A stretch of 64,000 nt of DNA from Albugo candida (taxonomy: Eukaryota): NCBI GenBank assembly GCA_040437565.1, contig JBDOQK010000059.1:124001-188000 (forward strand), written 5' to 3'. Shown piece after piece: positions 25,528 through 60,730 of the stretch; positions within the stretch are counted from its first letter, which is position 1; each line of letters starts with the position of its first letter. The position numbers and the translations under genes are program-made. A model generated the notes under the pieces. The model was not told the origin of the DNA, ran no database searches, and saw only the letters and a program-made list of their open reading frames with translations.

Positions 25528-26975
25528 TATCCGATTCTTGCCTATATATCAACTAGCTTCATGTCTGTAATACGTACAATTTGAGCATATGGAAGGTTTA
25601 GTCCTTTCATCTGGCTGATGAATTCGCAACAAATCGGACGTTTGATCAAAAGTATCCTTAGATATTGTGTAAAGATCATACTGTTGTTGGGGTCACTGTT
25701 GTCAGCTGTGCATGGTATCATTTTTATGTTAGTAGCGATCACTGAAAAGACCCGGTGGTTGATTAATGATTAGCTAAACACTATGGACACCTATGGAACG
25801 TATGTAGCATGTTCGCCTTCAGTTGATGTGGATCACATCGAGTAGATAATAGACGCTAAGTTGGATGCTATTCTATAAGTCTTGAGCATAGTCTTAATCT
25901 CGTACTTAGTATGACTTGCCACTCGTTCCCATCGGCACATCATTATGATACTTAGACTTCGTATCACAATACCATACTATAATATATGCGATATCATGCT
26001 ATAAACGAGCCAAGTCCATTCGATCAAATTCTGGTAGGAAGAAGTCTTAATGTGTGCCTTTTGATCGAAATCACATTCGCCTCAATGCAACTGAGAAATG
26101 CGATCGCAACATCGCTTGCATCGATATCGCCTCGTGTGCACCGCCTCTCGGCCACATGTACAGCAGAAAATCAGCTCAATTGCGCGTATTTCGATGCGAA
26201 TNNNNNNNNNNNNNNNNNNNNNNNNNNNNNNNNNNNNNNNNNNNNNNNNNNNNNNNNNNNNNNNNNNNNNNNNNNNNNNNNNNNNNNNNNNNNNNNNNNN
26301 NTATCCGATTCTTGCCTATATATCAACTAGCTTCATGTCTGTAATACGTACAATTTGAGCATATGGAAGGTTTAGTCCTTTCATCTGGCTGATGAATTCG
26401 CAACAAATCGGACGTTTGATCAAAAGTATCCTTAGATATTGTGTAAAGATCATACTGTTGTTGGGGTCACTGTTGTCAGCTGTGCATGGTATCATTTTTA
26501 TGTTAGTAGCGATCACTGAAAAGACCCGGTGGTTGATTAATGATTAGCTAAACACTATGGACACCTATGGAACGTATGTAGCATGTTCGCCTTCAGTTGA
26601 TGTGGATCACATCGAGTAGATAATAGACGCTAAGTTGGATGCTATTCTATAAGTCTTGAGCATAGTCTTAATCTCGTACTTAGTATGACTTGCCACTCGT
26701 TCCCATCGGCACATCATTATGATACTTAGACTTCGTATCACAATACCATACTATAATATATGCGATATCATGCTATAAACGAGCCAAGTCCATTCGATCA
26801 AATTCTGGTAGGAAGAAGTCTTAATGTGTGCCTTTTGATCGAAATCACATTCGCCTCAATGCAACTGAGAAATGCGATCGCAACATCGCTTGCATCGATA
26901 TCGCCTCGTGTGCACCGCCTCTCGGCCACATGTACAGCAGAAAATCAGCTCAATTGCGCGTATTTCGATGCGAAT
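25528..26975. repeat. Gap-flank duplication: 25528-26201 repeated at 26302-26975
   Basis: 674-bp copies around N 26202-26301. Confidence 0.9.
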
Positions 26976-29672: not shown

Positions 29673-31429
29673 TCATCGACGTCGAGCCTTTGTGCAGGAA
29701 GTAATAGCAGATGCGCATCTCGGTGTGTTTGAACGTACCAGTGCTTGCATGAGATCTTGTTCGCGCTGCTGGAGCTGCCTTACTTGACGCTTCAAATAAT
29801 CGATAGCGTTTCCATGACTGCTTGTCACGCTTTCAGTCGCTGCATGTGCGTTTAAAGAAGACTCTGAACTCTCCAGATGCCGGATTCTATCCTCCAAAAG
29901 CAGTACTTTTCCATTCACAGCAGCGTGATCTCGAAGTAGTTGATCATACGCGAGCTGTAGTCTATACATTTCGCTCCTTTGATCAGTATTTGGTTGTTCG
30001 CGCTGAATGAAAGGCTTCGACGATGAAAGCAGCGGAAGTTTAATCTCTGAAAATGATCCATGAGACTTCCCTTCCTTTCCAGACATTGTCATGGTTGTCT
30101 CACTCAGATTGCGAGATCGATCGGAATGCTGATCGACTAAAAGACCGAGTCTAAGCTCGAGCGCCTCTTTTTCGGCTCGCAATTGTGCGTTCTGGCGCTG
30201 TAGATTCATAACCAGCATGTCTGCCGCATTGACTTGTACTGTCGGTTTATTTTTTATATTTCTTGCACGAGTTGCATAATGAAGCGTACTGAGTGTTTCT
30301 TCCAAATACTCGCTTGATGGTGAGATACACGCAATCATCAGAGTGAAGCTGGAGCCTCCGAGCGAGTCCATCAGTAGTTTTGTCAGCTTACTGTCCCTAT
30401 AAGGTATGAACGCAGCGTTCGACGCAGTAGAAGCTGCCGAGATCACTGTTCCCAGTGTTAGAAGACTCTTGTTGATGCTGCAGGTTTCTTCAGTGTTGAC
30501 CGATTTTGTCTCTTTCAAACGCTCGCTGTAATAAGCGATTAGAACCGTCTCAGCAGGCAAACAGTAAAATACTATTCATACCTTCCAGCCAAATCGACAA
30601 AGGTTATTTTCCCATTTTTCCCAAGTGCCTGAGCACAATTTTTCGACTTGGTGATCCTGTCGATGTAGATTGTCATCATGGAATGACTACGACTCGAGTC
30701 ATTGTTCATCTCGTGAGACCCGACCCGGCGATTTTTGTGGCCTTCATGAACGACGGCCATGACGTCGTCAATAGAATCGCATCGTACTACCAGTAAATCT
30801 TGCACGTAAAAACCTCGATGATCATTCCATCGAACGGATAATCGCTTCCTTTTCGATGAATTTAGCAAATCGTATACGTGTTCATTGTATATTTCCAAGC
30901 TCGAAGCACGCACATCGAAAGTCACTTCCTCGTCTACAGCTTCGTTTGACGCTTTTTCCATCAGATTGTACAGATAGCGGATCGATCGTAAGAGAATACC
31001 GTCTGTGCCTTGATCGTCTTCAATATTGGAACGAAGGGTGTTTTTCGCACGATATGCTCCATCTAAGAGCTCATCCAGCCCGGACATGCTGTACGTCTTA
31101 CCAGAGCCAGTTTGCCCGTAAGCAAAAACAGTCCCCAGATATCCCTGAACAACGTTTTCGAGAATTTCAACGATGCCGCAATGCTGGAAAAAATCGATTT
31201 GACTTGTATTCTCCGACGCACACCAGTCAAAGTGGAAACTTCGAATCGTTTCTCGATTTGATATCGGGTCCAAAGTAACAATTTGCAGCTCATTCGATTC
31301 TGTCGGTAGAAATCGACAACACTTTGCATCATCGCGGTCTTTCTCCACGGAATGTAGTGGACGACCTCGAACAACGACGCGAAGTTGTGTGTTTTCAGGA
31401 CGCGCTATAGATTCGGCTCGCGAACCCAT
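29673..31429 (-). CDS. Kinesin motor protein, KIF12-like
   Basis: Contains [22 protein letters not shown] and [16 protein letters not shown] is split by intron 30581-30526. Coiled-coil tail; the 3' end may have one more intron (GTACGT after MQAL). Confidence 0.9.
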
Positions 31430-34201
31430 TTCGTTGCTGGCGATTATAAACACTCGATACAGCCCACAGGATATTTATTTATAAGTTAATGCTATAAAGC
31501 TACGAGATGGATAATAACGCGATAGATAGGAGCGCCCACCACCACAAAGACCCAAGCGTTTGGCTACTGTTTGGTTGCGTCCTTGTCGAAGTATGGACAG
31601 TCACAGCGTCGGGTTGTTTTGATGATTTCGACGTACAATCTTCTCCGAACCATCCATCAAAGCAAGTGCATTTTGCGGTTGCTGTGTCACATATTCCATT
31701 CCCAGCGCACGATCTAGGACATTCTCTCTCACACACAACATCTGGATCGGGGCAGGTTATAGTTCCACTAAAGCCAGGTACAGTTTTCACTTGGTTTGCA
31801 CGATCACATACCACATCGATCGTGTCTGATGTCGCTATTCGAGGGATTGTGAGAGTCACTGTTCCGTTCGAGCCACAGGAAAGTGCGTAACAGCCAGTTT
31901 GGCGTCGAGCGCTGACTGTCCAAGCTCGGGAATCACTACTTCGCAAAGTTGTTTTGGTGCATCGACAATTTGGGCAATACGTTTCTCCCAATATATTGAG
32001 ATTTGTATTCAGAGGACGGATCAAATTGCCAGGAAGACGACAATCGCCGTATTTGTACCCTGTATTGATCGGACAAAAGTCTGCAAACTGATTGAGACTT
32101 CCCTTGGACGGATCTGTGAAATACTGATACTGCGATGGGATCGTTTCACCATTTGTGATACTGCACACTGAGCGAGATATTCCATCAACAGAACAGCTCT
32201 CCTGAGTGTTGGAAGTGCAGTAATGATCTTCCGCAATGGAAGTCTGTTTAGAGGTGATACATTTATCTGTGGCAAAGCTGCATCCTTTTTTGGCGCCGAA
32301 TGTAAGCTTTTGTGCCTTCAACAAATTCGATCGATACCATCCCGAGTCTTCAAAAAAAGCTAACGTGAGGCCGGAATATATATTCCGAAAGCTTGATGCT
32401 GGGCTCATGTATTCGGATTCAAAAAGACGCTCTTCCCAGTGTGAGCCCATACATCCATCTTCATCCTGACTTTCCAACTCTGCACCGGTCACAGAGGAGC
32501 AATTGAAATGATTTTTCACAAACTCNNNNNNNNNNNNNNNNNNNNNNNNNNNNNNNNNNNNNNNNNNNNNNNNNNNNNNNNNNNNNNNNNNNNNNNNNNN
32601 NNNNNNNNNNNNNNNNNNNNNNNNNCGCTTTTTCCATCAGATTGTACAGATAGCGGATCGATCGTAAGAGAATACCGTCTGTGCCTTGATCGTCTTCAAT
32701 ATTGGAACGAAGGGTGTTTTTCGCACGATATGCTCCATCTAAGAGCTCATCCAGCCCGGACATGCTGTACGTCTTACCAGAGCCAGTTTGCCCGTAAGCA
32801 AAAACAGTCCCCAGATATCCCTGAACAACGTTTTCGAGAATTTCAACGATGCCGCAATGCTGGAAAAAATCGATTTGACTTGTATTCTCCGACGCACACC
32901 AGTCAAAGTGGAAACTTCGAATCGTTTCTCGATTTGATATCGGGTCCAAAGTAACAATTTGCAGCTCATTCGATTCTGTCGGTAGAAATCGACAACACTT
33001 TGCATCATCGCGGTCTTTCTCCACGGAATGTAGTGGACGACCTCGAACAACGACGCGAAGTTGTGTGTTTTCAGGACGCGCTATAGATTCGGCTCGCGAA
33101 CCCATTTCGTTGCTGGCGATTATAAACACTCGATACAGCCCACAGGATATTTATTTATAAGTTAATGCTATAAAGCTACGAGATGGATAATAACGCGATA
33201 GATAGGAGCGCCCACCACCACAAAGACCCAAGCGTTTGGCTACTGTTTGGTTGCGTCCTTGTCGAAGTATGGACAGTCACAGCGTCGGGTTGTTTTGATG
33301 ATTTCGACGTACAATCTTCTCCGAACCATCCATCAAAGCAAGTGCATTTTGCGGTTGCTGTGTCACATATTCCATTCCCAGCGCACGATCTAGGACATTC
33401 TCTCTCACACACAACATCTGGATCGGGGCAGGTTATAGTTCCACTAAAGCCAGGTACAGTTTTCACTTGGTTTGCACGATCACATACCACATCGATCGTG
33501 TCTGATGTCGCTATTCGAGGGATTGTGAGAGTCACTGTTCCGTTCGAGCCACAGGAAAGTGCGTAACAGCCAGTTTGGCGTCGAGCGCTGACTGTCCAAG
33601 CTCGGGAATCACTACTTCGCAAAGTTGTTTTGGTGCATCGACAATTTGGGCAATACGTTTCTCCCAATATATTGAGATTTGTATTCAGAGGACGGATCAA
33701 ATTGCCAGGAAGACGACAATCGCCGTATTTGTACCCTGTATTGATCGGACAAAAGTCTGCAAACTGATTGAGACTTCCCTTGGACGGATCTGTGAAATAC
33801 TGATACTGCGATGGGATCGTTTCACCATTTGTGATACTGCACACTGAGCGAGATATTCCATCAACAGAACAGCTCTCCTGAGTGTTGGAAGTGCAGTAAT
33901 GATCTTCCGCAATGGAAGTCTGTTTAGAGGTGATACATTTATCTGTGGCAAAGCTGCATCCTTTTTTGGCGCCGAATGTAAGCTTTTGTGCCTTCAACAA
34001 ATTCGATCGATACCATCCCGAGTCTTCAAAAAAAGCTAACGTGAGGCCGGAATATATATTCCGAAAGCTTGATGCTGGGCTCATGTATTCGGATTCAAAA
34101 AGACGCTCTTCCCAGTGTGAGCCCATACATCCATCTTCATCCTGACTTTCCAACTCTGCACCGGTCACAGAGGAGCAATTGAAATGATTTTTCACAAACT
34201 C
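30950..34201. repeat. Gap-flank duplication: 30950-32525 repeated at 32626-34201 (kinesin 5' part and leishmanolysin 3' part)
   Basis: 1576-bp copies around N 32526-32625. This explains the partial ORFs 31500-32519 and 32461-33129. Confidence 0.9.
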
Positions 34202-51737: not shown

Positions 51738-53591
51738 ATGACTTGGACCAACAGTCCGATTCGGACCACAAAGCTGACCGTATGTCGAAGAAACTCGATC
51801 GGTAAAGCATCAGTGCTCTATATGATGTGGCAGCTGATTGTCTTAATCGTTGGCACATGCTTTCTCACGCTTATCATTTTGCATCAATGGCACCTCGAAA
51901 AGCTCCAACACCCAACGCATCGATTTTTAGAAATGATTGCAAGAAGTAAAGGTGTTCAAGTCACATTGACCCCACGCATAGGATCCACATCGAGCCCAGA
52001 GAACACAAAGTTTAAGGCCATCTTGTTTCCTGTCAAAACCAAAGTTGATGATCGCACTATCCGATTCGATGGACAGCTTTCGTACAGTGTCGGGCATCGA
52101 GAATTTAAATTCACATTACTGGAGAACCGGGGCTTTGTCACAATACGCAACCAAACGTCGGGAGCCGTACTTATCACAAAATGCCTGGAACCAGCAAACG
52201 TACCTCCACTTCATCTCATCACAGATGCCGTTCGTTCGGCACGAGTTATAGACGAGATTTCGTCACATGAATTTAGCATCGAGTGTGGTGATGGAAAGCT
52301 CGTCGAAGTATTATTTACGGATGAGCCATACGTGTTCTGTGCTGGGAACACATCTCATGTGGTCGATAAAATCCACGGTGAGGACCTAGAAGCAGCTATA
52401 GAGCTTTTTTATGAGCACACAGAAACAACTCCGTCGAGAAGTATTCTGACAATCCCAGAAAACCTTCATTTTGGATCATGTCGTCATCTTGATCAGGACA
52501 ACTATGACTCGGATGACCTCGATGAATCCTCGTTAGCTGATTTTGGTTTGAATTCTGAAAACTCGCCGAGTGTCGCGGGGGCTGTTAAATCACACATCAA
52601 CAAAGCTCATCGTCGTCTTCGCTCGCTGTATCAGAGAACCATCCAACCACACATTCAAAGACTTCAAAATCGTGCTTTGGATGTGATGGCTATCTCAAGA
52701 GGTCAGCGAAGATTAGGCGCCTTCAAAACATTACGATGCAAAAATTGCAAAGGTGGAAAGAAAGTGTGCGTGTTCGTTCACGGATATAGACGAAAGGGAC
52801 TCAAGCCTGGAATCTCTGAACAGACCTCTTTCAAAGAGTATTGGGGAAGTATTCAAAAACATGTCCCGTGTTGCTCCTCGAGCACGTTTTTGCGTCTCGA
52901 TACAATGCGCCATGCATGGATGAGCAGAAATCTCACTTCAAAAGTATGTGAAGCTGCAATCCGACTGACAGGTAGTAAGAATCCAATGAGTCTGGAAAAT
53001 ATCGCTTTGATCGGTCACTCGATGGGCAATTTGATCATAGCTGCAGCGGTTCTCAATAATGAATGTGCGATCGGTCCAACATCAATGTGGATATCGTTGC
53101 AAGGTCCTTTCGTTGGTACAGAGACTGCCAGTGTATCGAAAAAGTTGTGTGCCTCTGAGGGACCCGCCCGACAAGCTCTAGAAGCATTAAGGCTTTGTCC
53201 ATACACAGTAGCAGCTGAGTCGCTTCAATATATCACGTCGAGATACATGACACCGGATATACGACATTGGTATGCAAAGGCGCTGAATGTTCATCGCAAA
53301 ATGGCTACATCTTGTCTGTGTGGTGTGAACACAGTGGGGCTCTTGAGTCCGCATTCGGTGATGTATGGGATGCTGAGTTCAGTCACACCACATCACACTC
53401 CTAGTGACGGTGTAGTGGAGATTCGGAGCTGCAAAGGGCTTTTCACTTACGATATGTTTGCGAGAACATACTACAAAAACAGATTTTATGAAGCTAGTAT
53501 CAATCATGGCGATGGACGTTTTCTCCATGGAGACGGATGGTGGGGAGCGAATCGAAAACCAATAGCCTGGCTTCAGTGTCAATTTGCCTGA
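51738..53591 (+). CDS. Membrane-anchored alpha/beta-hydrolase-like protein
   Basis: N-terminal TM helix, FVHG, GHSMG nucleophile elbow, SDGVV and NHGD. Confidence 0.8.
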   Translation: MTWTNSPIRTTKLTVCRRNSIGKASVLYMMWQLIVLIVGTCFLTLIILHQWHLEKLQHPTHRFLEMIARSKGVQVTLTPRIGSTSSPENTKFKAILFPVKTKVDDRTIRFDGQLSYSVGHREFKFTLLENRGFVTIRNQTSGAVLITKCLEPANVPPLHLITDAVRSARVIDEISSHEFSIECGDGKLVEVLFTDEPYVFCAGNTSHVVDKIHGEDLEAAIELFYEHTETTPSRSILTIPENLHFGSCRHLDQDNYDSDDLDESSLADFGLNSENSPSVAGAVKSHINKAHRRLRSLYQRTIQPHIQRLQNRALDVMAISRGQRRLGAFKTLRCKNCKGGKKVCVFVHGYRRKGLKPGISEQTSFKEYWGSIQKHVPCCSSSTFLRLDTMRHAWMSRNLTSKVCEAAIRLTGSKNPMSLENIALIGHSMGNLIIAAAVLNNECAIGPTSMWISLQGPFVGTETASVSKKLCASEGPARQALEALRLCPYTVAAESLQYITSRYMTPDIRHWYAKALNVHRKMATSCLCGVNTVGLLSPHSVMYGMLSSVTPHHTPSDGVVEIRSCKGLFTYDMFARTYYKNRFYEASINHGDGRFLHGDGWWGANRKPIAWLQCQFA

Positions 53592-53626: not shown

Positions 53627-54859
53627 TTAGGACCTGTTGTTCACTCCAGCAATATTACGAATTTCCTCTTGCAATCCGCTCGAAGTGTCTTGTGTGCCTA
53701 AAAATCGCTCTTGCATGTCCATAACGTGCTCATTGTCAACTATGCTGTCTTGAGCAACAGCACACTTCCAATCAACGCTTGTGAATACGTAACCATTGCT
53801 CTTATCAATTGCTAAAATGAGTGCTTTAAGCGATGTTGTATCGTGTATTTGTATAGGATGGAATGACACAAGGCTGAAATCTTCAATCACATCGATCAAA
53901 GCTTCATTCAGCCGCCGAAATTTGGATGATACAACAGTCTTTGACTCGTTTATTGATGTGTCCTCATCCAGTATCAGCTTTTGATTCCCATTTTCATCTA
54001 CCTCATCAACCTGTAAGCCGAGCCGCTCGGCATCCAACCAATTGAGTAAATATCGTAAATCCAAAACGTCCGTATAATAATCGAGATTGTAAGCTATAAA
54101 CTCGATATCAGAGCAGATGAGATATATCACATCAGCACGCATACCCAATTTTCCATACTGCTCCATCAAGTCAACTTTTGATAAAACATTAATATGCGGT
54201 AGTTCCAGGCGCACCATTGACGCCAGACTCATCAATACGACCGAAATGAATTTGGAGCTATCCGTGCAGTGATGAGCATCGACCAAGTGAACTACTGATA
54301 ACTGTACAAAGACGCTGTGTCAGGGTACCGAAAGATTCTCAAGACGACAACGTACTCGAACATTTAATTTTCCGAGCTTTTCGAGTATTTTATGAACGCT
54401 CGTCTCGTGAGTGTACAACTCAACTTGACCGGGGAAGTCGAAAAGCAAGTATTTATCTAAGATGAAATATTAGTGTGAAGGAATGGAGACTGAGATGCCG
54501 ACCTTGGAAGGCCTCTAATTGTCGTACGAGCCATTCGAAATTGCTATCGATGTAATTCATACAGTAGACGAGTCCTCCATTAGGACCGAGTTCCAAAGTG
54601 TCCATAACATTTTCCAAGCAAATTAATTCTGCGACATTAATAGCGCAGTTATATGTAAATGCATTGTTAAGGAGCTATGGTAAGTAGCATTGGAAGTAAA
54701 TGTTTATTATGGAAAAGGATATGTAATGTTCTCATTGGCTGGGTCCATATTGATGATGATTGTATCGCGACCATTCTGCTGGAGAAACTGTTGCATTCCA
54801 GCGCAGTAGGTGGTTTTGCCAGAGCCCGGAGGCCCGACAACTACTTGACCAAATGGCAT
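53627..54859 (-). CDS. GPN2: GPN-loop GTPase 2 (5 exons; first intron is AT-AC)
   Basis: Contains [42 protein letters not shown] and [12 protein letters not shown]. Introns at 54722-54655, 54502-54457, 54355-54302 and 54144-54094. Confidence 0.92.
54655..54722 (-). other. U12-type (minor spliceosome) AT-AC intron, 68 nt
   Basis: 5' site ATATCCTTT, branch site TCCTTAAC (54673-54666), 3' end TTAC. Removal restores the frame [15 protein letters not shown]. Confidence 0.92.
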
Positions 54860-55760
54860 TATCAGTAGAAAATAGGGTCTATTAATGTGGCTTTGTACAG
54901 TAAGTCGTTGACGCTGGAGTAAATGTAGCAATAATACTGTAGTAGTAGTTACGATAATGTGATCAGATACCATGCTTATACTCTCTTAAAGCTGCATGAT
55001 TGACTTGGCTCCCGGGAGCGTTTCAACTATATCACTTCTTCACTCTTTAGTACGACACTACTCCAGCATTATGAACATTAACATATAGTTCCATATTGCT
55101 AGCCAGCATGAGTAGCCGCTCTTGATGCTCTTAACTGCTCAAATATGGATATTCTCACTGTGTATGACATTGATAGCGGTGTTTGTCAAGCAGAGCGACT
55201 ACCGACTGACATAATAGCGGTGATCCACACCGAGGCCTGTTGATAGCTTACCCTTTTGCTGCAAATTGAACGCCACATCAGACGAAAGACAAAGATATAT
55301 GTCATACATACTTCCAGCCCAGTCTCTGTTTCAATCACACTCTCATCCACTGGCATGTTGTCTCATATTGGTTGGGTTTCTTATCGTTCAGAATTTTTCG
55401 GATGACCCGCAACGCAGTTCCTACTATTTGAATTACTAAAGCTGCTTGCTGCCGACTTGCCCACCCAAAAGCAAAGCACTGGAGGTTTAAACAAACAGCG
55501 TGCCAAACGACTGTTTATTTGGAATGATGGACGAAAGCTTCTATAAAATGAAACGCGTCCTACAATTTGTTGGACTGTGACTGCCACTTAATTATGGAAC
55601 CTTCTGGCTGCANNNNNNNNNNNNNNNNNNNNNNNNNNNNNNNNNNNNNNNNNNNNNNNNNNNNNNNNNNNNNNNNNNNNNNNNNNNNNNNNNNNNNNNN
55701 NNNNNNNNNNNNCTTTTTTTTCGATTTCCTACCTGCCGCCCTCATTTCTTGAAATCCAGA

Positions 55761-58277
55761 ATGGCAACAAGTCCAAATCATCGAGAAACAACGCCGCTAT
55801 TACATGCGCTTGGATGGCAAGCTCGATTCTCCAGACCCTTTGCCGTGTACGCCATTCTCCCACTAATCGTGACTCTGGTTATCGTCCTCTCGATCTATGT
55901 TTCCCTGAGACCTTCCTCGACAATCACTCAGTCTTCACCTCACTTTTCACCGCTACCGATAAACTCTTTTGACCGCTCCCTCCCTCCATTCTTAGTCGCA
56001 AAGCATAAGATACCACCAAAACTGATTGATCGACGCAAATTCCCCCAGGCAATCCCAACCAACTCCTTTTGGTCGAATCTACTAGTCGGAGATTCGCATG
56101 GACTCAACGCGGGCGCTGGAGAAATAACATTGAGTCCATATACGGTCCGAAATCTCCCTCAACGAGTGGAAATCTCTTATGGAGACTCACGACGTGCTGT
56201 GACGAATGTGAGCATCTCTGAAGTCTTTCAAATGGATGTTGGCATCACTGGTTTTCGCAATGTAATGACACAAAAAGATCAAGCAGTCACTTCGCAAGAT
56301 ATCCGACATGCTACTTCTCGAGAGATCCTCGCTTTTGACGCGCTGTCGGTAACCGTGCAATATGGCTTTGACGTGATGCAGAGTGTGAGTACCGACTCTC
56401 CGCCGCTCCTTCCTCCCTCAGTATATATGAATGCTACCCTCAGTAGAGGAGCTCCTTATTTGACTGTGATGTACCATGAAGTCGTTCCAGTGGTGGAATT
56501 TAACGGTACAATTGTAAGTCTCAACGGGCAACAAGTGAAGGAATCATCAAACCCGACTCAATGGACTGGAAGAAAATTCGTGGTTCAGGTATTGGTATAT
56601 GGGGCGACAAATGGCTTGCTTGTGCCTCAAAAATGGATTATTTACTTTGAGAAAACTCGAACTCTCTCTCTCGTGAGCTTGGAGAAGATTTCTCAGTTTC
56701 TTCCCTATCATGCGGATGGATCCCTCACCACTCCGACACAAGCCCGATTGATCGATTCGAGCGTGTATTCTGGCGTTGTTCGGGTCGCTTTGGTCGCAAA
56801 TGATGCTATGGAAGCAGTTTTGGACCAGTATGCACACATTTATCCCAAATCGTCCAATCTCAACATCTCTGCCCATGAGAATAAAAGCTATGTGCAATTC
56901 AGCTGGGAAATTGACAGCTTTGAACCAATTTCGACCAAGAATCAGAAGGTGAATTCAACCTCTGATCTTCTACTGATGGCCAACCCTCATCAGCTGATGA
57001 CATTTAGTGAGGTGCATATCAGCTCAAATGTCTTCCAAGTTTTTGACATTGAGACCGGATATCGCACGCTCAAATCGAACATGACCGCTGTTGTGGGAAA
57101 AACATGGGTTCTGGAAGAAAACTTGACCGATATTGGATTTGGATCGCATCAAGACATCCAGCTAGAGTCCATCCCTTTACATAAAGAAGCGATTCGGGAG
57201 TCATTATACAACGATTCAAAATTTGTTCCACAAGCTCAAGACCCATACTTTTTCGGTAAAGAGGTTAATCGTCAGGCAAAGTTGGCACTCATCGCCAATA
57301 CTTTGGGGGAACGCAGTGTCCGAGACGATATTTTGGATCAGCTTCAAGTCTGGATGACAACGTGGCTAACCGGAAGCAACTCGGATCCGTTCGTGTACGA
57401 TACTATTTGGGGTGGAATTTGCTCCAAGAATGGCTTAAATGGAATTTTCTGGATGACGGATTTCGGAAATGGATGGTACAATGATCACGTACGTGCAGTC
57501 TTCCCATTTCTCTCTTTACGTTCTCATTTGAGCTTTTAGCACTTTCACTATGGCTACTATCTTAACACACTCGCGATCATCTTGAAATTCCGTCCTCTTT
57601 ATTTCAAGCAACACGAGGCCGCTATTCTAAGCTTGGTGCGAGATATCGCGAATCCAGAGCAAAATGACCCGTATTTCCCATTCACTCGTCATTTTTCTTG
57701 GTTTGATGGTCATTCCTTCGCAAGTGGCGTCTACACTTTGGATGGTGGAAAATCTCAGGAAAGTGTGAGCGAAGCGATCAATGCGTATTACGGAGTTTAT
57801 TTGCTCGGTCTAGCTCTAAATATGACGTCGCTCAGAGTAATGGGTCAAGTGCTATTAGGAATGGAATCCCGGGCTGCTCAGGTGTATTGGCAAATGCCTT
57901 CCTGGTCGACCATCTATGAGCCTGAATACGCTGCAAACAAAATGTCTGGGCAAATCGCTTGCACCAAAGTTCAGTACTCAACATGGTTTGGTCCAAAGCC
58001 TGAGCATATGCACCTCATCAACATGATTCCATTCACACCCGCTTCGAATTTGTTCCTCAAACGCCGATATATCGCCGAGGAATATCAAGTCTTGCTTGAT
58101 CAAGCACTTCGACGACCAAATTATTCCGTGGAAGAGCTCTGGAAAGGGTACGCGATCTTGGCATTAGCTCTTCTGGATCCATCAGCCGCGTGGGATCAAT
58201 TGCAGCAAATTCAAACGTTTGACGACGGGAATTCCCGGACCAGTTCGTTGTATTGGATTGCGGTGCAAAAGCCTTAA
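55761..58277 (+). CDS. GH81 endo-1,3-beta-glucanase with N-terminal TM anchor
   Basis: Contains IPTNSFW, DPYFFGK, DFGNGWYNDH|HFHYGY (intron 57489-57539) and QESVSEAIN. Confidence 0.93.
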
Positions 58278-58375: not shown

Positions 58376-60730
58376 TCAAGCTTGATTACGCCGTACTCGG
58401 AAGCTGCTAGATGATGAGTCATTCGGGCTGTGTTGTGGCCTGATGGATGTAGGCTGCAAGGGCTGAGAGCACTGCTTGCGAGCCTGAAGAGCATTGATTT
58501 TTCCATTTTCAAACACGAATTCCGGGAGATCATCCCATTTTAAAAGCACTGAAGTGGTTTGCATCCTTTTCGATACTGATCCACCCGACTGAGCATTCTG
58601 GTGTAAATCAGTTGCAATGAAGAAGGAGATTGTGCGATTCACACTGGTCAGAAACTCATCATCTCCAGGTCTTCTCCTTAAGCCAAGAAAAAGCGATGAC
58701 CCTGAACCATTGGCCAGGTACTGAGGATATCCGTGCACAAAATCGATCATCGGTAAATCTTGCAACATCTTGACCAGTTTGTGGAGACGTGAGCAGACAA
58801 ATGTCTCCCATCGATAGAGTTCGCCCGAGTCGATTTGGATAGTGAGAGCCACGTACCAGTCATAACGAACAAAGAAGCTTGATGGCTGGTACAAGACATC
58901 CCACGAAATGATCGCACCCGTTTCAGACCTTTCAGATCCACTTGCCTCTCTACTTTTGTCTCGAGCCTCTTGGTGATTTACTATCGATGCAACAAGCTCT
59001 CGTTCAAGCAGATTTCGGGCTAGCCGAAGCTCTTCTTTGATGACCGATAGCGTTGAAGCCGTAACTTGAGCTGAAGAATTCATTTGCGGGTACGCTGGCG
59101 TGATGATCGGCATCACATGTGTTCGATCACGCACTTGAAAGCTCCAGCATTCCAAGCCCAATTTTGCATCATACGGAATATTAAGCATGATGGGTTTTGG
59201 CCATTCCCATTCTGAAAGAACGTAGAAAAAGTGTACAAAGACATAAGACGCCGATTGTCCCGGGAATAATTGGCATACAAATGCCGTCAAAAGCGCCCAA
59301 TTGATTCCACTCAGGTAGCCGAGCTTTGATGAGTATATTCCACGTCGTCGAGCCCACGCTCGAACTGCTCGGGAGACTCGCCGAAACACTTGACGATTCG
59401 GGACTAATGCGAGGATCATGGTGCTCACGCGTGGAGCATTCAGACTTTTCACTGATGCTGAGCTCACACCTGCCAGTATGTGATCAGAATGAATGTCGAG
59501 GTCAGCTCCAACTGATAATAGCGGAAGTTGGGCGAAAAGAAGATCCAATTTGATACTTTGATACGATAATGAAATGAGTGGAACGGAAGCATTCGGCACA
59601 GTGACCAGTTGTGTGACTTGAGACATACGCGAAAGAACGGAAGAGAACCCAGCGAAGAAATCGTGATGCGATACATGATACGGCACAGCACATACAACAT
59701 CAATATCGGAATCCGGGTCGTGTAAACCCAAGCGATACGATCCAGCTACAAAAAGCGCTCCTTGTGTGATCGCGATTTGCTCTTGAGTCAATCCGACTTC
59801 ATACCCCAGTACTTTGATCCATCGATTTAAAGCATCGGAAATGGATTTCAGCATTTTCGTTTTATGAGGTTTTGCTTCTTCTGTCTCAACGGGAGCGAAG
59901 CGATCGATAAAGGAAACAAACGATCCCTCTGACTCGACCAAATGTACTTGAATATGGTCTGGAATAGAATTCTGTAGGACTTTTCCACGCACGGCTGTGT
60001 TGAGATGACACTTGTGGTACAAAACATCACGCACTTGATCGCATTCGCCAGACCACAAAAGCGATATCAAATTCTTTTCCAGCTGTTTAGAAATGGCACG
60101 TTGTTGAAATGCTTTCTCAACGGAAGAACACAGCGCATGAAACTCAAAAACATCACAAAATTGCTGATGTCTTATGTCAAATTCCACAATCCGATTGCAT
60201 AAATCCATCGCTTCTCTGTCCAAATCCGATATTTCTCGTGACTCCAATTCGGCTAATACGCATCGAGAAGAGACATTGGACGTCGCATCACTTTGTGTGT
60301 CGGTTTCAGACTCCAATTCCGTTCCGGAACCTTCAGTCTCTTCCTCGTCTCGAGAGCTATTGCATTCACTTTTATTCGTCCTGAAAAGCTTCTCAACAGC
60401 GTGATGTGGTAAGAAATGGCTTTTTGCTCGATTTCGGCACTTTTCCTCACTTTTCGAAGCCTCGACTCGATTCTTACCATGCGAACAGTGTGATTTAAAA
60501 CCTCGTGGAAGGCTTTCTATGCAATTTAAAGAGCATGCGCGTCGCCTTTGAAGGCCGCTGCTCCATGGAGCAGCGGTGAAAGGAGTGGAAGAAACGCGAC
60601 GAGCGCTAAATTCAGCACGTCGATGTGCTTTAAGAGACTTTTGTTTCATGAGATCATCCTTCCAGCCGAGTGAGCATTTCTGAGGGATGGATTTTGAGGT
60701 GGAAGGCTCAGGCGTTTGAGAAGCACGCAT
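58376..60730 (-). CDS. Canonical poly(A) polymerase with long N-terminal extension
   Basis: Contains GSYRLG..DSDID, WARRRGIYS, WEWPKP and MPIITPAYP. Confidence 0.92.
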   Translation of the reverse strand: MRASQTPEPSTSKSIPQKCSLGWKDDLMKQKSLKAHRRAEFSARRVSSTPFTAAPWSSGLQRRRACSLNCIESLPRGFKSHCSHGKNRVEASKSEEKCRNRAKSHFLPHHAVEKLFRTNKSECNSSRDEEETEGSGTELESETDTQSDATSNVSSRCVLAELESREISDLDREAMDLCNRIVEFDIRHQQFCDVFEFHALCSSVEKAFQQRAISKQLEKNLISLLWSGECDQVRDVLYHKCHLNTAVRGKVLQNSIPDHIQVHLVESEGSFVSFIDRFAPVETEEAKPHKTKMLKSISDALNRWIKVLGYEVGLTQEQIAITQGALFVAGSYRLGLHDPDSDIDVVCAVPYHVSHHDFFAGFSSVLSRMSQVTQLVTVPNASVPLISLSYQSIKLDLLFAQLPLLSVGADLDIHSDHILAGVSSASVKSLNAPRVSTMILALVPNRQVFRRVSRAVRAWARRRGIYSSKLGYLSGINWALLTAFVCQLFPGQSASYVFVHFFYVLSEWEWPKPIMLNIPYDAKLGLECWSFQVRDRTHVMPIITPAYPQMNSSAQVTASTLSVIKEELRLARNLLERELVASIVNHQEARDKSREASGSERSETGAIISWDVLYQPSSFFVRYDWYVALTIQIDSGELYRWETFVCSRLHKLVKMLQDLPMIDFVHGYPQYLANGSGSSLFLGLRRRPGDDEFLTSVNRTISFFIATDLHQNAQSGGSVSKRMQTTSVLLKWDDLPEFVFENGKINALQARKQCSQPLQPTSIRPQHSPNDSSSSSFRVRRNQA

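Follow-up and report, generated by a model that had tools for sequence, protein, structure and literature searches.

The window analyzed here is a stretch of 64,000 nucleotides (nt) of Albugo candida DNA (contig JBDOQK010000059.1 of assembly GCA_040437565.1, positions 124,001 to 188,000 of the forward strand). On its minus strand it carries a gene for the GPN-loop GTPase 2 (GPN2), which appears to be single-copy and whose first two exons are separated by what is very probably an AT-AC intron of the U12 type. Exon 1 (54723..54859; all elements of the gene lie on the minus strand) begins with the ATG at 54859, encodes the P-loop GPPGSGKT and ends with ...ATTAC in phase 2, while exon 2 (54503..54654) encodes the GPN motif (LGPNGG). 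The remainder of the gene comprises intron 2 (54457..54502, GT-AG, 46 nt), exon 3 (54356..54456), intron 3 (54302..54355, GT-AG, 54 nt, phase 0), exon 4 (54145..54301), intron 4 (54094..54144, GT-AG, 51 nt) and exon 5 (53627..54093, stop codon included). Splicing of these five exons gives a protein of 337 amino acids (aa) in which both the P-loop and the GPN motif are intact.

Translated one at a time, all five exons match the Pfam domain PF03029 in colinear order. Residues 7-44 of exon 1 correspond to profile positions 1-38 (E=1.6e-13) and exon 2, from its first full codon, to positions 41-87 (E=3.1e-11); exons 3 and 4 cover positions 92-121 and 126-170, respectively. Membership in the GPN2 family is indicated by the combination of the PF03029 domain with the GPPGSGKT P-loop and the LGPNGG motif. 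In the protein search the relatives that bear a family name are all called GPN-loop GTPase 2, an assignment by name and not by a tree including GPN1 and GPN3. The best match of exon 5 is the A. candida GPN-loop GTPase 2 (P0001; 97% identity), with other oomycetes at 42-58%.

The first intron occupies 54722..54655 and is 68 nt long. Across it the minus strand reads ...GAGAACATTAC|ATATCCTTTTCC...CTCCTTAACAATGCATTTAC|ATATAAC, and beyond it the frame is picked up with ATATAACTGC... and runs on through the GPN motif. Its terminal dinucleotides are AT (54722-54721) and AC (54656-54655), as in U12-type introns of the AT-AC class. The branch site of U12-type introns has the consensus TCCTTRAY and a preferred distance of about 10-15 nt from the 3' splice site. 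In the GPN2 intron the branch-point sequence is TCCTTAAC (54673..54666), the sole copy in the window, after which 11 nt remain, the terminal AC included. This puts the branch adenosine some 12 nt short of the 3' splice site, and the interval, AATGCATTT ahead of the AC, contains no pyrimidine tract, as is typical of this class. The 5' splice site ATATCCTTT (54714..54722) conforms to /RTATCCTT, the '5' rule' for U12 introns in PMC2846911. The first-pass annotation had described a textbook U12-type AT-AC intron in GPN2 at exactly these positions, and both the sequence that it quoted and the classification itself stand on each of the sequence features just listed.

Removal of the intron has a precise effect on the protein. 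Residue 45 and the split codon fill PF03029 positions 39-40, and hence the excision is seamless, with no profile position lost or added; the P-loop exon is joined to the GPN-motif exon, which agrees with the earlier claim that removal restores the GPN-loop exon. Retention gives ...ENITYPFP followed by two stop codons, the same YPFP-stop product as had been claimed. Such stop codons in the read-through of the 68 nt, together with a scaffold that contains nine 100-N gaps and duplicated contig ends, could suggest that the gene is a pseudogene, or that the 68 nt are an insertion or an assembly artefact, with no functional splice and a truncated or absent product. We regard this as very improbable, because the five exons all have open frames that match PF03029, the downstream structure recurs in another A. 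candida record (P0001, identical in 271 of 275 residues), and the closest assembly gap is about 750 nt away from the GPN2 ATG. Moreover, the Achlya and Saprolegnia models are disturbed at the same site with a Y-P-F signature (see below), and the protein-search matches include no further A. candida GPN2.

Competing splice solutions

For the stretch from the ATG to the last base of exon 2, we enumerated all in-frame, stop-free GT-AG, GC-AG and AT-AC introns and scored the resulting proteins with a GPN2 profile derived from alignment A2, which comprises 13 proteins and none from Albugo. Among the 62 solutions the AT-AC intron 54722..54655 ranks first with 171.9 bits, compared to 159.6 bits for the best GC-AG solution and 107.7 bits for the single GT-AG solution; it is thus superior to every GT-AG or GC-AG alternative. 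The first-pass annotation had stated that there was no GT-AG solution. Strictly, one in-frame GT-AG intron does exist (54771..54629, 143 nt), but the statement was right in substance, as this solution scores 64 bits lower and deletes 25 conserved residues.

Use of this GT-AG intron by the major spliceosome would produce a shorter GPN2 without the segment containing D-P-A-N. In its favor, it is the only solution of its kind that is in frame and free of stops, and its AG at 54630-54629 was picked by the gene predictor in the public model KAL0583605.1. The residues that it loses, however, include the N-M-D-P-A-N block, which is nearly invariant in the alignments, and the perfect U12 signals would be left without explanation, so that we give this possibility very little credence. 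The GC-AG intron 54739..54675 (65 nt) is likewise in frame and stop-free and comes closer in score. Yet with it the conserved A-N-E segment gives way to unrelated residues, its score falls 12 bits below that of the AT-AC solution, and its donor, GCCAAT, is a poor match to a GC donor; its use in place of the AT-AC intron is the least probable of the alternatives that we considered.

The individual signals are not rare in themselves. The window contains RTATCCTT seven times where 3.41 occurrences are expected (seven or more in 5 of 100 shuffles), and TCCTTAAC once where 1.35 are expected; taken alone, these 8-mers show no enrichment worth remark. Their combination is a different matter: of the nine [AG]TATCC[TC]T sites in the window, only that in GPN2 is followed downstream by the branch motif CCTTAAC. 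The other eight RTATCCTT/RTATCCCT sites, which include two duplicated pairs, have no credible branch motif, and the one in GPN2 is thus the only U12 candidate of the window. Among 2000 windows simulated with a first-order Markov model, the strict composite (ATATCCTT...TCCTTAAC, 7-13 nt, AC) was present anywhere in 9 and a relaxed version in 347. Once the restoration of a conserved protein is also required, the probability of a chance origin is negligible.

The consequences of this intron for annotation are evident from the public records. The GPN2 cluster contains two A. candida proteins, CCI41885.1 (P0001) and KAL0583605.1 (P0031), and neither includes the P-loop exon. CCI41885.1 (275 aa) starts at an internal methionine of exon 2 and, from there, shares with the spliced model the 271 residues mentioned above. 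KAL0583605.1 (311 aa) is identical in residues 30-311 to residues 56-337 of the spliced model. Its first 29 residues come from a spurious first exon (55272..55356, minus strand) with no similarity to GPN2, which is joined across 643 nt to position 54628, thereby skipping the true P-loop exon. With the A2 profile the full spliced model scores 498.9 bits, as against 387.1 and 372.9 bits for the two public models. The AT-AC intron is absent from both and is thus unannotated, and the mis-modelling by standard gene finders that had been predicted from the sequence is real. Models that start, like that of A. candida, at the internal methionine of exon 2 are also seen in a whale (P0273) and in other records, which might hint at a hard-to-predict upstream intron.

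Provenance of the intron

We then have the evidence of the oomycetes as a group, in which 6 of the 17 named GPN2 models that we read are aberrant exactly at the AT-AC site and 11 are intact. Besides the two A. candida models, the aberrant ones are from Saprolegnia parasitica, Achlya hypogyna, Thraustotheca clavata and Globisporangium ultimum. The Achlya hypogyna protein (P0017) has a 24-aa in-frame insert at precisely the AT-AC codon, between L-P and Y-V-A-E, which begins with Y-P-F and ends with T, as expected from the read-through of a 72-nt phase-2 intron of the form N|ATATCCTTY...AC|N. Near its end the insert contains T-L-T, a tripeptide that ACCTTAAC situated some 13 nt before the 3' end could encode; given the degeneracy of the code, this goes no further than compatibility. 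At the same place the Saprolegnia parasitica protein (P0019) reads L-P-Y-P-F... These protein signatures point to the same AT-AC intron in the Saprolegniales, which would then be older than their split from the Albugo lineage, and they suggest that it may predate the oomycete radiation.

This signature is specific in a survey of 280 GPN2-family proteins (150 cluster representatives among them). Inserts of at least 5 aa at the profile position of the AT-AC site number 16, and Y-P-F is found in those of Achlya and Saprolegnia only, the others being low-complexity loops; no read-through signature was detected outside the oomycetes in these 280 proteins. The GPN2 proteins of Phytophthora, Pythium and Peronospora, considered as protein models only, are intact at the site, and in these and the other intact models the intron may be either absent from the gene or present and rightly predicted. 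Two other sites also show disturbances. In-frame read-through of the GT-AG intron 2 (located after ...EAFQ) is seen in an Albugo-like ENA record (P0030), in the Achlya hypogyna protein (P0017) and in a JGI record (P0006), and the position of intron 2 is therefore widely common among oomycetes. In Phytophthora palmivora (P0010) and Globisporangium ultimum (P0004) an insert directly follows the G-P-N-G-G motif, which suggests a retained intron where the Albugo gene has none.

U12-type introns as such have precedents in this lineage. Oomycetes are stramenopiles long known for both intron types (PMC5608401), and expressed sequence tags of Phytophthora sojae and P. infestans supported two AT-AC and one GT-AG U12 introns per species (PMC2846911). 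A 2023 pan-eukaryote survey reports few U12 introns in Phytophthora and dozens in Saprolegnia (PMC10639083). The A. candida intron belongs to the same class in the same lineage. The name Albugo is missing from the main text and the supplement text of that survey, and our literature search for minor introns in Albugo gave no paper; in PMC5608401, which mentions both Albugo and U12, the two mentions are unrelated.

In plants, the GPN2-type gene of Arabidopsis, QQT1 (At5g22370), is an ortholog that, like A. candida GPN2, has one U12 intron, the splicing of which fails in U11/U12-31K and U11-48K mutants (PMC5853960, PMC3422263, PMC4892727). The first-pass annotation had pointed to this intron correctly. 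As to its location, two plant models offer side observations. In a fused Taraxacum model (P0035) the second copy restarts at Y-D-C-A-I-N, a weak indication that plants have an exon boundary at the Albugo site or no more than one codon away. In Dendrobium catenatum (P0188) the N-terminus, as read from the protein, is apparently the true first exon in a shifted frame that returns to frame at K-V-A-V-V; this would fit a mis-predicted intron near codon 30, a possible location of the plant U12 intron.

Vertebrate GPN2 also possesses a minor intron. Those of human (ENSG00000142751), mouse and zebrafish are classed as 'minor' and respond to inhibition of the minor spliceosome (PMC11347168, Table S6), so that members of the same gene family in vertebrates and A. 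candida each have one. The intron orthology table of that study (Table S8, where the human GPN2 minor intron is column 168) is based on reciprocal best matches in which the 20 residues that flank each intron are 40% identical or more. It lists the counterpart in A. laibachii, the sister species of A. candida, as 'major', and gives for Arabidopsis, Phytophthora ramorum and Hyaloperonospora arabidopsidis the entry protein_ortholog, i.e. an ortholog was found but no orthologous intron. It is conceivable that the A. laibachii entry derives from a mis-annotated model.

The positions of mammalian exon boundaries are implied by an isoform of the bat Myotis myotis (P0250), which jumps from ...AVDVSEL to LTAVHLVD. 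Relative to the AT-AC site of Albugo, one of these boundaries lies ten codons downstream, while the other corresponds to Albugo intron 3; neither coincides with the AT-AC site itself. The phase-0 GT-AG intron 3 of Albugo (R|L-S-V-V-H-L-V-D) coincides with the bat boundary at L-T-A-V-H-L-V-D, and its position looks to be common to oomycete and mammal, as judged from the proteins. Thus, the human minor intron is probably at a position other than the Albugo AT-AC site, and on the simplest reading it corresponds to one of the Albugo GT-AG introns and not to the AT-AC intron.

The suggestion in the first-pass annotation that the intron may be ancient must accordingly be divided. Read-through in Achlya and Saprolegnia favors an age reaching back to the oomycete ancestor; the published table speaks against its being the same as the human minor intron. 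As Table S8 ties the human intron to no intron of QQT1, and its A. laibachii counterpart is 'major', deep antiquity is unproven. Other sources add nothing: GPN2, QQT1 and AT5G22370 have no entry in the supplement of PMC7367187, AT5G22370 is absent from the supplement of PMC11347168, and a literature search by gene name for minor or U12 introns in GPN2 (ATPBD1B) gave nothing relevant.

These observations raise the possibility that animals, plants and oomycetes all have a U12 intron in GPN2 without its occupying a common position, the AT-AC intron of Albugo, Achlya and Saprolegnia being located elsewhere in the gene. We offer this tentatively and consider it rather unlikely, though far from negligible. 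If it were true, the ancestral GPN2 may have had at least two U12 introns, of which different lineages lost different ones or converted them to the U2 type; or else this one essential gene may have acquired or relocated minor introns more than once. In Albugo, GPN2 would in that case be among roughly a dozen genes that tie the minor spliceosome to the reduced genome of an obligate biotroph.

Splicing machinery and weight of the evidence

What is established about U12 splicing suggests a mechanism for the removal of the intron. The 5' splice site ATATCCTTT would pair with U11 and subsequently with U6atac, while U12 would pair with TCCTTAAC and leave the branch adenosine bulged out, some 12 nt before the terminal AC. 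Excision of the 68 nt would then join the codon AC|A, that of T46 just ahead of the conserved Y47, and allow synthesis of the 337-aa protein with its P-loop and GPN motif. If the intron were retained, translation would stop 5 codons into it, so that functional GPN2 is expected to depend on minor-spliceosome activity. The presence of a perfect U12 intron in GPN2 is good indirect evidence on which we strongly infer that A. candida retains a working minor spliceosome, as the first-pass annotation had proposed; published evidence on this point comes from a supplement table on A. laibachii.

Alternatively, an AT-AC intron could be excised by the major spliceosome, given that rare U2-type AT-AC introns exist and share with the A. 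candida intron the terminal AT and AC. They differ from it in lacking the ATATCCTT 5' site and the near-3' TCCTTAAC branch site, both of which the A. candida intron possesses. An exact U12 consensus at the 5' site and the branch site, a branch near the 3' end and the lack of a pyrimidine tract are features of U12-type and not of U2-type AT-AC introns. Some room for the U2-type alternative comes from the inventory of small nuclear RNAs (snRNAs) in A. laibachii, in which U12 and U4atac reach only the 'putative' threshold (PMC11347168 supplement), but we find this explanation hardly credible. In favor of the U12 type, the same supplement (Olthof et al. 2024) records 11 minor and 180 minor-like introns in A. 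laibachii, along with one high-confidence U11 and one high-confidence U6atac, each with coordinates; in these snRNA data the order of the columns is as deduced from the Achlya and Arabidopsis rows. The U12-type intron is by far the best account of the locus.

Several points nevertheless weigh against it. The marginal status of U12 and U4atac in A. laibachii is one, and the Rfam search of the 64-kb window is another, as it gave no match of any kind at the gathering scores or at E<=1, so that no minor snRNA gene lies in the window. No A. laibachii GPN2 protein was among the protein-search matches. Actual excision, supported indirectly by the seamless homology, and its reliance on U11, U12, U4atac and U6atac are what we infer. 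Finally, an 8-nt direct repeat, TTACATAT, lies over both junctions (TTAC|ATAT; 54719-54726 and 54651-54658, minus strand). Because of it, the same mRNA would result from boundaries displaced by as many as 4 nt in either direction, and within +/-4 nt they are fixed by the consensus only and not by the mRNA product.

The same repeat was considered as a target-site duplication of a recent insertion, and rejected, because one half of it is set by the splice consensus and the other half by coding. Such an origin is also disfavored by the exon-side 'AC', which is not conserved (other oomycetes have a Pro codon), and by the apparent presence of the intron in the Saprolegniales as well. We judge the repeat to be a coincidence of splice consensus and coding sequence.

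Genomic neighborhood

Downstream of GPN2 lies an open reading frame (ORF) of 617 aa (51738-53591, plus strand) with no Pfam match at E<=1e-5. Upstream there are two adjacent ORFs with matches to GH81 glucanase domains (55749-58277, plus strand), which probably belong to a single gene with a short intron near 57540-57581, and beyond them a poly(A) polymerase (58376-60730, minus strand). These neighbors have no bearing on the splicing of GPN2. The nine gaps in the window are each exactly 100 N in length. Two pairs of segments, each at least 300 nt long, are 100% identical (25528-25827 and 26302-26601; 30950-31249 and 32626-32925), and in either pair the second copy begins right after a gap (26202-26301 and 32526-32625, respectively). 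These pairs look like unmerged overlapping contig ends.

Conclusions

The A. candida intron is a new, well-supported but ordinary case of a class already documented in oomycetes, and general knowledge of U12 introns is unchanged by it. Its main value is in the correction of annotation: the coordinates given here repair the GPN2 model, whereas the errors in both public A. candida proteins pass into any functional, phylogenomic or orthology work that uses them. The same blind spot visibly harms the GPN2 models of Saprolegnia, Achlya, Thraustotheca and Globisporangium. In yeast, GPN2 is essential. Its counterpart QQT1 is essential in Arabidopsis (PMC5853960). The intron also provides a convenient handle on minor splicing in an oomycete that is an obligate biotroph, in the form of an assay with a single amplicon.

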